A stretch of 64,000 nucleotides of DNA, taken from the IMG/VR virus record IMGVR_UViG_3300020331_000002; one strand, written 5' to 3'. The notes below the pieces were generated by a model. That model was not told the DNA's origin. It saw only the letters and a list, made by a program, of their open reading frames with translations, and searched no databases. Source of the DNA: a virus (taxonomy: Duplodnaviria > Caudoviricetes). Positions within the stretch are counted from its first letter, which is position 1. Each line of letters opens with the position of its first letter. Both the position numbers and the translations under genes were made by a program. Below, piece by piece: positions 2,230-54,963 of the stretch.

Positions 2230-2524
2230 GTATTACCCCTACAATAATAACAGCTCTACGGATCATAGCGGATCCCGCTAGCTTGCTGAAAGTCGCGTGC
2301 CTATCAGTATCGATTGAGTCGCGCATGTCGGCAGCAATGTTGTGTGGCCTAAAGTTAGGAAACAACATCAAGTCAATGCCGTAGCCTAAGACCGCTGCTA
2401 TCGAAACAAGTGATAATTTATAAAGAACTAAAGGTACTTTGACTGGACTTAGTAATCCTATGGTTACTAATAATAGCAAAGTTACAACGATGAAAGTTAT
2501 TCGTCCTTGGTTAACTGGTCTCAT
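2207..2524 (-). CDS. putative 2/3-TM holin (Holin_2-3-like)
   Basis: VLGYGIDLMLFP…RP and AMIRRAVIIVGVILGVSLGI pattern; directly upstream of SLT gene; start taken at MRPVNQ. Confidence 0.75.
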   Translation of the reverse strand: MRPVNQGRITFIVVTLLLLVTIGLLSPVKVPLVLYKLSLVSIAAVLGYGIDLMLFPNFRPHNIAADMRDSIDTDRHATFSKLAGSAMIRRAVIIVGVILGVSLGI

Positions 2525-7745: not shown

Positions 7746-7879
7746 TTTATGAATGAAAATGCCTTATTATAGATTCTAACAACAAGATTGGATAAAAAGT
7801 AAAAATTATCCAACGACAAAACAGAAAGCAAGTCCTAAGAGACTGCCAATAATAATAACAATAATAAGGCATTTTGCAC

Positions 7880-50898: not shown

Positions 50899-50920
50899 GG
50901 ATCCCTTCTTGTTATAATAG

Positions 50921-51128
50921 TGGTGCCCCGTGAGTCACTAGACTCATAAATGAAACGACAGGTTTATTGTACTGCCACGCTTAGGAGGCCACCACAGCCG
51001 TTCCCCTAGGTGATCAACGTCCTACTTATGCAGACAGTACATGAGTGGTTAGTCCATATAGCGGCCTACATACTTTCAAACTCAACAGTGACCAGAGAGA
51101 TCATTTCATAAGTGCCATGCACCGGGGC
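50921..51128 (-). ncRNA. 208-nt RNA with tRNA-like ends and CCA
   Basis: GCCCCG/CGGGGC + A + CCA; TGAGTC/GACTCA hairpin at T-arm position. Confidence 0.65.
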
Positions 51129-51265
51129 ATAGAACTTTTACGACTTCTTGTCGTTTTGTTTCTTTTCTAACTCTTCAACACGTTTTGTTAACTCTTTGAC
51201 CTGTTCTATTAATTTAGATACAGGATCTACACCAGCTGTAATCGTTAACATACTTTGTCTCTATT

Positions 51266-51372: not shown

Positions 51373-51675
51373 CTACGCTTTGACCACATATGTGATTGAC
51401 ATGTTACTGTTAATCATTGTGGGCGTTCTGTGCTTGGTGCGCTTAAGGTCACCTTTCTTTAACAACCGTTTCAAGTCTGGATCCTTGTCCAGTACAATAC
51501 AACCACGGAAATTTACAGGAATAGCCATACCTTCTTTACAATATGCAAGGATACGGTCTCTGCGCTCCTTGCCGTATGGCGCTCTATAAAGCCATTGTTG
51601 CACTTCTTCTTGTACCTCGAAGCTTGCGGCTTTGAGCCATGCATCGGGGTTACTGATGGTTTCTGCGGTCATCAT
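51373..51675 (-). CDS. hypothetical protein
   Basis: ORF track, GGAG RBS. Confidence 0.6.
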   Translation of the reverse strand: MMTAETISNPDAWLKAASFEVQEEVQQWLYRAPYGKERRDRILAYCKEGMAIPVNFRGCIVLDKDPDLKRLLKKGDLKRTKHRTPTMINSNMSITYVVKA

Positions 51676-51693
51676 AGACTCCCTTAAGTGTTA

Positions 51694-51971
51694 ACCATTT
51701 TGTGTAATACCTCATGGTAGGACCTGATCCCTACTTCGTCAAGCCAAGCTTGATTTACCGGTACCTTTAAACCTGCCTTTCCTCGAGTAAACGAGCACAA
51801 AGTATTACACAAAATGGCACCAGCACCCCGCCGCATTCACAACGCTTATCTGGCTTATCCGCTCCGCATTCAGCGCAGAGACTAACAAGGTGATTACTGC
51901 AACGGTTGACAGGATTAGTAGGATTCCCGGGGTATCCACACCCCGCCTGTCATTGCTCGCCTGCATGGTGC
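51694..51971 (-). ncRNA. two tandem structured RNA modules (51815-51971 CCA-ended; 51694-51817 closed by a 16-bp perfect inverted repeat)
   Basis: GCACCA-T-GCA / TGC-TGGTGC-CA; CCATTTTGTGTAATAC / GTATTACACAAAATGG. Confidence 0.6.
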
Positions 51972-52056
51972 GGTTCTATTAATCCTAGCGATTGAATCCC
52001 GTGGACTGAATTAATCACCAATAGACGCTCGATACCGCATCGTTACAATAATTCGG

Positions 52057-52668
52057 TTACAAGTCGTTTACTTCAACGACTCGTACAAAGTCAATAATAA
52101 ATTGTACAATATAATCCCAAGAATGACCGTTTTCAATGTTGTATTCAGCAATACGACACAGCGCGTCGAGCGTAGCTTCGTATTCTTCATCATCATCACC
52201 ATCAACGGTGCACGTTCCTTCGTCGTACATTTCTTTGGCCGCTTCAAAATCCATTTCCAAGTCGTGTACGAGCATTGCAGCCAAGTCACAATCATGGATG
52301 GCAACATCGTCCATTTCAGCACCGAAACAAATCATATGTTCGTGCACGAACTCATTAACTTCGGGTCTCAGTGAGTCACCATCAGTAAACAAAATGAAGT
52401 AGTCAGCCACTTCAAATACGATAATCTCGTCGGAGCCAATATTGTCGACCAGTGCCTCAATATCACTCTCATCTAACATACCTAAGAAAGTTTGGATATC
52501 AGACTCGTTAGACGTCACATAAACACTAGCATAATCGCTACCTGTCAAAAAAGACGTATCGTCTACGTCACCGCGCACGGTGTCTGAGTCAGCAGGCAAG
52601 TATGATGTATATTCAACATCAAGCGTTTCGTGTACTAACTTACGTTTTTCGGTGGTGAATTCCATCAC
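52057..52668 (-). CDS. highly acidic protein
   Basis: Very D/E-rich 203-aa ORF. Confidence 0.65.
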   Translation of the reverse strand: MMEFTTEKRKLVHETLDVEYTSYLPADSDTVRGDVDDTSFLTGSDYASVYVTSNESDIQTFLGMLDESDIEALVDNIGSDEIIVFEVADYFILFTDGDSLRPEVNEFVHEHMICFGAEMDDVAIHDCDLAAMLVHDLEMDFEAAKEMYDEGTCTVDGDDDEEYEATLDALCRIAEYNIENGHSWDYIVQFIIDFVRVVEVNDL

Positions 52669-52757: not shown

Positions 52758-52851
52758 TTTAGATAACTTCTTAAAACTTGTGTCTATTATACAACCATTT
52801 AGGTTGTTTGCAAGAAAAACTTTTAATTATTTTCCACATTGACACGGTGAT

Positions 52852-52926
52852 TGGAGCGGATAAGGGGAGTCGAACCCCTTCACTACGGCTTGGAAGGCCG
52901 AGGGCGTCACCAGTGAGCTTACCCGC
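52852..52926 (-). tRNA. trnG: tRNA-Gly(UCC)
   Basis: CGGC-CTTCCAA-GCCG, CCA. Confidence 0.88.
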
Positions 52927-53452: not shown

Positions 53453-53998
53453 TTAAGATACTACTTTGACCCACTGGTTATAAAACGCATCGCGACCAAA
53501 GCCAAGGTACATATCGTCACCAACGAGAACAAGAGCTACTTCACGTGAACTTGTCTTAGTTGCGGACGGATTAGGTGCCGCAAGATATTTGCTCCAGTCA
53601 GCACTAACGATACCGTGTTTGTCAAGAACGCTTTCGATATCTTCATAATAAACAACGTTATTGCCGTGGCCTATTTGGCGCCAATTAGAAGGCTTAGTGT
53701 TCCACTCTGCACCCAAGTCATGTAACGCTTGGTAAATTTCACTTACTGCGTCATCGTCTTGTTCTGTTATCGACATTAGCTTACGCATTGCGCTAGGCTG
53801 TTCAGCACTTTCGTCCATATCTTCGCCTATTTCATCAGCCATCATGTCTTCAAAGTCCATAAGCTTATTCATGATATTATCATAAAATGCTTTGACTTTA
53901 TCTGATGATGCTTGATCATCGACTTGAAGCATCAAGTAATTGCGCTCTTTAGTCAGCGCATTATAAGTGGCGTTCGCCAATGAGTTAAATTTTGACAT
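53453..53998 (-). CDS. candidate internal head protein (internal MRKLMSITE motif)
   Basis: Internal copy of the family motif. Confidence 0.55.
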   Translation of the reverse strand: MSKFNSLANATYNALTKERNYLMLQVDDQASSDKVKAFYDNIMNKLMDFEDMMADEIGEDMDESAEQPSAMRKLMSITEQDDDAVSEIYQALHDLGAEWNTKPSNWRQIGHGNNVVYYEDIESVLDKHGIVSADWSKYLAAPNPSATKTSSREVALVLVGDDMYLGFGRDAFYNQWVKVVS

Positions 53999-54038
53999 TC
54001 TGATATCCTATTCTTTTTATTTTTCGTTATTAGGATTT

Positions 54039-54114
54039 TGGAGCGGGTAACGGGGCTCGAACCCGTGGCCTCTACCTTGGCAAGGTAGCGCTCTACCAAC
54101 TGAGCTACACCCGC
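54039..54114 (-). tRNA. trnG: tRNA-Gly(GCC)
   Basis: CTACC-TTGCCAA-GGTAG, CCA. Confidence 0.95.
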
Positions 54115-54122
54115 ATAATTGG

Positions 54123-54371
54123 TTATTCGCCTACGTACTCGTGATACTTTTCACAATGTCGATCTGAACAAGTCTGGTCAGTATAAGTCATAGTACCGCA
54201 TTCAGGACAAGGAATACTTCCTTCTCTTCCTTCACGCACTTGGGATTCGCTTCTGCGAGAACGGCGCTTATCTGAGCTTTCCGGTTGGTTTATGTCAGCT
54301 TGTTGATCGTCGTGGCCCATGCTATCACTTTCAGTAATGGCATTCATAAATTTACGCATTGTATCAGACAT
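54123..54371 (-). CDS. candidate internal head protein with Cys4 zinc finger
   Basis: MSDTMRKFMNAITE; CPEC…CSDRHC; CTAAATA at 54396. Confidence 0.7.
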   Translation of the reverse strand: MSDTMRKFMNAITESDSMGHDDQQADINQPESSDKRRSRRSESQVREGREGSIPCPECGTMTYTDQTCSDRHCEKYHEYVGE

Positions 54372-54394
54372 TAGTATGTCACTCCTATTTTTAG

Positions 54395-54790
54395 TTATTT
54401 AGCATGTTGCTCAAGGACTGATCTATTATCTTCTTCATCCGGATGCTTGTTTCTGCGTGCATCGGCTTCTTGCCTCATACTGACTAAATGCTTGCCGGGC
54501 TTACCGAGTACCACATCGTGAATAGGTTCTATACGTATAGTATCAATAATTTGACAATACTTTGCTCTTAACTCGTCACTTATCTTAGTATACTCGGTAC
54601 GCGAGCCAAAAAAGAAATTACTAACTTCTTTAGGAGATCCTGCGATTAACCATTTTAGATGATTGACTGTTTTACCGATTCTTTCAACTAAATGGCCGTA
54701 ATTGCATCCCGCAACAAGTGAGTCACCGTCTAAAAGAAATTCAGTATCACCATCTTTCAAAGTGTAAACAACGATGTATATTTTGGCCAC
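54395..54790 (-). CDS. hypothetical protein
   Basis: ORF track. Confidence 0.55.
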   Translation of the reverse strand: MAKIYIVVYTLKDGDTEFLLDGDSLVAGCNYGHLVERIGKTVNHLKWLIAGSPKEVSNFFFGSRTEYTKISDELRAKYCQIIDTIRIEPIHDVVLGKPGKHLVSMRQEADARRNKHPDEEDNRSVLEQHAK

Positions 54791-54811: not shown

Positions 54812-54963
54812 TGGGCGAGCCGCCGGGATTCGAACCCGGGAATACAGAATACTTCCGCTATTTGCATTTCACTTGGCATTGTCCGTACCTTTAAACCCCT
54901 CATACCAATACTTGGCTTAAAGAACCGATGCACCGATTCTTAAAGTTGCAAGGAGTCAGCCCG
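54812..54963 (-). ncRNA. 152-nt tRNA/tmRNA-like RNA with G3:U70 acceptor stem
   Basis: CGGGCTG/CGGCTCG + C + CCA; T arm CCGGG-TTCGAAT-CCCGG; no D or anticodon arm. Confidence 0.7.

Follow-up and report, generated by a model that had tools for sequence, protein, structure and literature searches.

Small structured RNAs have been known in phage tRNA clusters since RNAC and RNAD of phage T4 were sequenced in the 1970s. The question raised here is what is encoded by a 381-nt gap (51676-52056) among the tRNA genes of an uncultured marine jumbo phage that is abundant and widespread. The window, i.e. the whole stretch of 64,000 nt (64 kb) that was analysed, is the reverse strand of 22685-86684 in a 310,672-bp IMG/VR record with direct terminal repeats, and holds 17 tRNA genes according to ARAGORN, all on the minus strand, and 16 according to Rfam. 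The gap is flanked by a 203-aa ORF (52057-52668) and by a 100-aa ORF, hereafter ORF100 (51373-51675); since both genes are on the minus strand, the gap was read on this strand as well. Inside it, an ORF-free, folded stretch of about 360 nt runs from 51694 to 52052. On balance, we find it somewhat probable that a structured non-coding RNA is encoded here on the tRNA strand, as a single molecule of about 360 nt or as two to three cut pieces, in view of the fold signal, strand specificity, constraint and absence of coding capacity that it displays.

Each of the two flanking proteins falls into one 90% cluster among 5.8 billion proteins, and this cluster is represented on well over 100 contigs (Tara, Logan, JGI and NCBI assemblies). 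The population set consisted of 17 sequences that span the gap and come from 16 assembled contigs, and a search of IMG/VR with the flanking proteins returned one sister genome, 98% identical. Contigs over the stretch also occur in four marine metatranscriptome runs from two studies; these are assembled, give neither strand, ends nor levels, and may include carried-over DNA. Breaks of such contigs near 51813-51833 were considered as RNA ends and rejected, because they fall on variant sites.

Predicted fold of the gap

The minimum-energy fold of 52100-51660, taken as minus-strand RNA, consists of three domains, A, B and C. For the whole gap the fold reaches -130 kcal/mol on the minus strand against -98 kcal/mol on the plus strand, with 22 G.U pairs among its 125 pairs.

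Domain A (51893-52052, minus strand) is a 160-nt three-branch fold. Its 12-bp closing helix (52052-52041 with 51904-51893) has a pair probability of 0.93-0.98 in the fold of 52100-51660, and two hairpins lie inside, a long irregular one (52039-51969) and A3 (51952-51907). On the minus strand the domain folds with a z-score of -3.25, one of 200 shuffles doing as well; in the comparison of strands the values are -2.9 (minus) and -0.8 (plus). Immediately upstream of the domain, the stop codon of the 203-aa ORF is spanned by an 11-bp hairpin (52058-52085, minus strand; UACGAGUCGUU/AACGACUUGUA), which lacks a U-tract and is therefore not a standard terminator. Further upstream, a sigma-70-like sequence, TTGAAA-17-TATATT (52136-52108), was set aside as a promoter of the RNA, as TCGAAA replaces its first hexamer in the sister lineage.

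Domain B (51819-51892, minus strand, 74 nt) is composed of two hairpins taken from the helix list of the minimum-energy fold (51889-51854 and 51853-51820), in each of which the word UGAAUGCGG is present. Its energy is -24.9 kcal/mol on the minus strand against -9.9 kcal/mol on the plus strand, and compared with shuffled sequences it folds no better (z = -0.9). A long-range pairing of 51890-51883 with the RBS region, proposed by RNAalifold, was discarded, since a population variant breaks it and it is missing from the single-sequence minimum-energy fold. Within domain B, 51854-51865 is a 12-nt perfect complement (GGAGCGGAUAAG) of the 3' end of tRNA-Gly(UCC) (52853-52864), the discriminator and CC included; chance alone would give about 0.6 matches of this kind in 4.6 kb.

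Domain C (51694-51818, minus strand, 125 nt) has a 23-bp closing helix around a 16-bp core and four small inner hairpins. The core is a perfect inverted repeat (51695-51710 and 51802-51817) whose arms are separated by 91 nt, one of two such repeats of at least 14 bp within 200 nt across the window; the preliminary description of this DNA had placed it one base away. Three further turns containing G.U pairs extend the repeat to the 23-bp helix, which has a probability of 1.0. The fold of the domain, computed for a 123-nt module, has a z-score of -5.6 and was equalled by none of 200 shuffles. A loop-junction complementarity (GUUUACU with GGUAAAU) occurs inside it, and several of its loops carry palindromic words. 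Folded alone, domain C adopts an equally good fold on either strand because its repeat is perfect, which leaves room for a role of this domain at the DNA level. At that level, 51683-51787 contains seven 6-bp palindromes in 105 bp (CTTAAG, GTTAAC, AAGCTT, ACCGGT, GGTACC, TTTAAA and CTCGAG), a density within the top 0.4% of the genome's 140-nt windows and equalled in 36 genome regions.

Constraint, coding capacity and mobile DNA

The population data support strong purifying selection on the gap. Counted over eight long population loci, the whole gap has 2.1 variable sites per 100 nt (8 of 381) and domain C has 0.8 (1 of 123), compared to 8.7 in the 203-aa ORF and 7.6 in ORF100, where nearly all are third positions. 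The nearby non-coding segments 52758-52851 and 50899-51265 have 5.3 and 10.6 variable sites per 100 nt, respectively, tRNA-Ser has 1.1 and tRNA-Gly 0. The corresponding value for the CCA-ended module of the preliminary description, discussed below, is 3.9, and for the upstream 85 nt it is 2.4, or 1.2 when an indel is left out. Third codon positions vary at 56 of 305 sites (18 per 100 nt), which differs from domain C with p = 2.8e-8 and from the whole gap with p = 8e-14; when all coding positions are taken instead, p for the whole gap is 1e-5.

The variants themselves largely respect the predicted pairs, and none of those among the 17 sequences changes a loop. The sole variable site of domain C, 51817 C>U, keeps a G.U pair, and the inner 91 bases are invariant. 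In domain A, 51948 A>G and 51911 U>C form a compensatory pair, occurring always together, in four contigs, and turning A-U into G-C. Five one-sided transitions retain pairing: besides 51817, these are 52045 U>C (U.G to C-G) and 51931 C>U (the pair becomes G.U) in domain A, and 51832 G>A (U.G to U-A) and 51819 U>C (G.U to G-C) in domain B. One terminal pair of domain B is broken by 51884 U>A, and a 1-nt indel at 51997 coincides with a predicted bulge of domain A. In a shuffling control the observed covariation score was reached by 92 of 500 shuffles, a control with almost no power given the very few changes; the main support for the structure therefore comes from energy, strand asymmetry and constraint. 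Since each flanking protein forms a single 90% cluster, there are no diverged relatives to supply covariation, and with no relatives beyond one near-identical population the fold itself rests mostly on thermodynamics.

The gap could also be read as protein coding. Two small frames are open on the minus strand of the window, a 53-aa ORF (51966-51805), whose product has a hydrophobic, membrane-helix-like segment, and a 50-aa ORF (51836-51684), which reads the 13-mer discussed below as G-L-K-V. We nevertheless give next to no credence to the gap encoding these small proteins: in the sister lineage the 53-aa frame carries a stop at codon 28 together with L>P and R>G replacements, neither start has an RBS nearby, neither ORF matches Pfam or PHROGs, and a 1-nt indel is tolerated upstream. 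Moreover, domain C is devoid of synonymous-type variation, unlike the neighbouring genes.

The terminal, perfect 16-bp repeats around 91 bp could alternatively mark domain C as a relic or site acting at the DNA level, such as a miniature inverted-repeat element, a retron-like msr/msd, or a target of recombination or of a nuclease, the more so as tRNA clusters of the T4 type are hot spots of mobile DNA (e.g. segB in T4). We regard this as highly improbable. A reverse transcriptase (PF00078) is absent from the 310-kb genome, and the element is therefore not a retron; it is present as a single copy and fixed in place, and is therefore not a mobile miniature element. There is no visible target-site duplication either, and the domain occurs at the same place, invariant, in 17 of 17 contigs.

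The two-module model, relatives and the RNAs of T4

The preliminary description had divided the gap into two tandem small RNAs, a CCA-ended module of 157 nt (51815-51971) followed by one of 124 nt (module 2, corresponding to domain C), the latter sharing a protein partner or target with a 152-nt RNA (54812-54963, minus strand) through a common 13-mer. Part of this picture stands, namely that a structured non-coding element lies here on the tRNA strand; the division into a CCA-ended RNA and a second RNA does not. The 157-nt module folds no better than shuffled sequences (z = -1.4), and its GCACCA/UGGUGC closing stem has a pair probability of about 0 once the whole gap is folded and is broken by the change at 51819 (T>C in the DNA, U>C in the RNA). 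Its terminal CCA (51817-51815) is buried in the 23-bp helix, where it supplies the opening three pairs of the 16-bp repeat, and is replaced by UCA in 4 of 17 population contigs. In the cluster, several tRNAs do end in CCA followed by a T-rich stretch, resembling the ...GGTGCCA/TTTTG found here, and the T4 tRNA cluster does have two tandem small RNAs. The three-domain architecture is nonetheless better supported than a CCA-ended module plus a second RNA.

As for the 13-mer, GGTTTAAAGGTAC is indeed common to both RNAs, exact and on the same strand, and is restricted to these two places in 310,672 bp. In domain C, one copy (GGUUUAAAGGUAC, 51761-51773, minus strand) makes up the loop and the 5' strand of the second hairpin, which is weak; the other (54885-54897, minus strand) lies inside the 152-nt RNA, which is not part of the gap element. 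The computed expectation of 0.05 covers that particular word and is the wrong null. In the window there are 68 maximal exact direct repeats of at least 13 nt, mostly plainly random. Aligned locally, module 2 and the 152-nt RNA reach a score of 15 (p = 0.017 against shuffles), and a score of at least 15 against module 2 is attained by 99 of 8172 genome chunks (1.2%), so that the match is at chance level and does not speak for a common partner or target. In the sister phage, the base right after the 13-mer of the 152-nt RNA (54884) is already changed from G to A. An extended form of the motif, GGTTTAAAGGTACSG, is found in 72 IMG/VR stretches, one of which is the sister genome; 66 of the other 71 are in open frames of at least 100 codons, and none is within 1 kb of a tRNA. 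Nor is the motif kept in three aligned rnaC genes of the T4 type, the only relatives that could be detected for the 152-nt RNA; thus, as far as it can be tested, the motif lacks the conservation in homologous RNAs on which the proposed link had been made to depend. Judged from these comparisons, it is by coincidence that the 13-mer recurs in the rnaC-like RNA, and the model of two tandem small RNAs with a joint partner is, taken as a whole, very unlikely.

Searches for relatives of the gap element outside this phage population returned none. Neither blastn with the region nor tblastn with both flanking proteins gave a match among INPHARED phages, ARAGORN reported nothing over 51676-52056, and Rfam covariance models gave no match on this interval, either at the gathering score or with E relaxed to 10, the families covered including tRNA, tmRNA, Y RNA/YrlA, 6S, GOLLD, ROOL, Polynucleobacter-1, ribozymes and riboswitches. 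A covariance model of domain C found one copy in the 310-kb genome, hence no paralogue, and the module 2 model had no match in the genomes related by DNA polymerase, which in IMG/VR are at 49% identity or less only, or in four loci holding relatives of ORF100. A 17-mer of hairpin A3 gave one match, unrelated and due to chance, and the similarity of the 3' part of the 157-nt module to tRNA-Cys is marginal. By these sequence searches, the element belongs to no Rfam family and is an orphan.

The nearest analogues are found in T4, where rnaD (119 nt) and rnaC (139 nt) lie in tandem directly after tRNA-Arg. The roles of their products, RNAC (species 1) and RNAD (species 2), are still unknown (PMC3014915, PMC9697503). 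The gap element resembles them in consisting of tandem structured non-coding units of about 120-160 nt within a tRNA cluster and on the tRNA strand. It differs in sequence, as its upstream part, the 157-nt module and module 2 show no similarity to T4 rnaC or rnaD in local alignments (p = 0.30-0.97), and it has neither a T arm of the GTTCGA type nor a conserved CCA end; conversely, RNAC and RNAD lack the perfect 23-bp closing helix of domain C. Without T4 sequence, T arm or CCA end, the element would therefore at best work like RNAC and RNAD and is not a member of their family.

The true rnaC relative of this phage appears to be the separate 152-nt RNA. Aligned with T4 rnaC it scores 22, as high as none of 500 shuffles, and the likeness lies in the last hairpin, the 3' strand of the acceptor and the T arm (CCGGGTTCGAATCCCGG), which is identical; further blocks align with the three rnaC genes of the T4 type. 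The 152-nt RNA has an acceptor stem of 7 bp with G3:U70 and a CCCA end. A search for tmRNA-like relatives with the pattern GGGCTGA..GGGTTCGAATCCCGG found only the sister genome and an ordinary tRNA-Met. From these sequence features, this RNA, described before as tmRNA-like, would be better called rnaC-like than a mini-tmRNA. The ORFs beside it (54123-54790 and 53453-53998, minus strand) are 18-31% different between the sister phages, and the RNAs and tRNAs near them 0-4%; by this sequence comparison, the ORFs in 53453-54790 mark a local hot spot at which proteins diverge or are replaced.

Domain C, ORF100 and possible functions

A further reading takes domain C as a cis-acting control region of the ORF100 gene and not as a free RNA. 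In one form it would be a DNA operator, its 16-bp arms, 107 bp apart centre to centre or about ten helical turns, being bound by the ORF100 protein and flanking a weak promoter. In another it would be a leader with a promoter in a hairpin, as in T4, so that read-through and locally started transcripts are treated differently. The motif YGKERR...PVNR...DPDLKxLLKKG marks the small family to which ORF100 (phrog_20476) belongs, and remote relatives of ORF100 were found. Its model, built with these relatives, is winged-helix-like (pLDDT 84), and its best Foldseek matches are weak and all winged-helix DNA-binding proteins (wHTH regulators). A putative sigma-70-like site, TTGACG-17-TACCAT (51714-51742, minus strand), lies within the repeat, shortly ahead of the 3' arm. 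In the window there is just one other long perfect inverted repeat (7756-7770 and 7861-7875, plus strand; 15 bp, arms 90 nt apart); it has nearly the geometry of the domain C repeat, its right arm overlapping the RBS of the next gene. The equal folding of domain C on both strands and the seven 6-bp palindromes would suit this reading as well.

Several observations count against it. The promoter match is weak (9 of 12 positions), and sigma-70-like sites in the region are as frequent in shuffles. The RBS of ORF100 (AAGGGAG, 51686-51680) begins 7 nt past the 23-bp helix and is not paired by the 3' arm, which ends at 51694-51695; the probability that the site is unpaired is similar in the long and the short transcript. 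In the T4 genes e, soc, 49 and I-TevI, transcript-specific hairpins hide the RBS. Domain C shares with these a long-range inverted repeat upstream of a gene and a promoter-like site between the arms, and differs in that its helix ends before the RBS, that the predicted accessibility is unchanged and that its 91 inner bases match a tRNA in conservation. An operator or a simple clamp leaves the invariance of all these inner bases unexplained. Relatives of ORF100 in other phages, moreover, have no such upstream repeat, and domains A and B, with their strand-specific, RNA-type signals, are not covered by this explanation. As ORF100 is predicted to be a winged-helix protein, a promoter-like site is present inside the domain and the RBS is not hidden, we retain the operator or leader reading for domain C as an unlikely alternative, albeit one to be taken seriously.

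Relatives of ORF100 are also located in the tRNA clusters of other marine phages (loci L039 and L044). One of them, in a different marine phage, again has tRNA-Thr and tRNA-Ser(GGA) downstream; its upstream neighbours are odd tRNA-like genes and not domains A-C. Directly upstream of the ORF100 relative in L039, at 2325-2487 (plus strand), two tRNA-like genes were missed by ARAGORN. The first, of about 60 nt, has a CAU anticodon, ends in CCACCA and is without a normal D arm, and the second, of about 88 nt, is tRNA-Gly-like (GCGGGTA...GACCCGCTCCA) with an irregular D region.

Returning to the structured RNA that we favour, a possible course of events can be proposed. The gap RNA would be transcribed within the transcript of the tRNA cluster. 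The uninterrupted 23-bp helix may then provide a handle for an enzyme specific for double-stranded RNA, e.g. host RNase III, or act as a protective clamp, and domain C would be released or stabilised as a small RNA, in the way that RNAD and RNAC of T4 derive from the tRNA transcript. Stems cut by RNase III flank rRNAs, and the R-sites of T7 are processing stems. The likeness to these lies in an uninterrupted helix of more than 20 bp flanking a structured core in a polycistronic transcript; the difference is that cleavage at domain C is only proposed and that this phage has no RNase III of its own. A Pfam search of the phage found no RNase III, dsRBD or TROVE/Ro60, and the first two of these results count against the processing view. 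A maturation of the RNase P type as in T4 is not indicated, given that the element has no tRNA-like T arm and its CCA is not conserved. The invariance of the loops leads us to propose that they would contact a specific protein or RNA partner.

A more far-reaching proposal, which we hold to be rather doubtful, is that the element represents a new class of phage non-coding RNA, with a helix-clamped core of 125 nt, invariant across ocean populations, that acts through its loops and is neither a processing signal nor the leader of a gene. Such a core might be a decoy for some factor of the host or the phage, or a scaffold for it, or might self-associate in the manner of ROOL and GOLLD. With these ornate RNAs the element has in common that it is multi-domain, several hundred nt long, phage-carried and beside tRNA genes; it differs in having no Rfam match to GOLLD, ROOL or Polynucleobacter-1 up to E 10 and in being known from one phage population only.

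For the study of phage RNAs, the removal of the 13-mer link takes away a false lead, and the gap element now has exact coordinates and a fold that can be tested. The rnaC-like 152-nt RNA may offer a second, distant sequence for working out the role of rnaC. If the structured-RNA reading holds, an abundant, uncultured marine jumbo phage would keep another, unrelated tRNA-cluster RNA under a constraint like that on its tRNAs.
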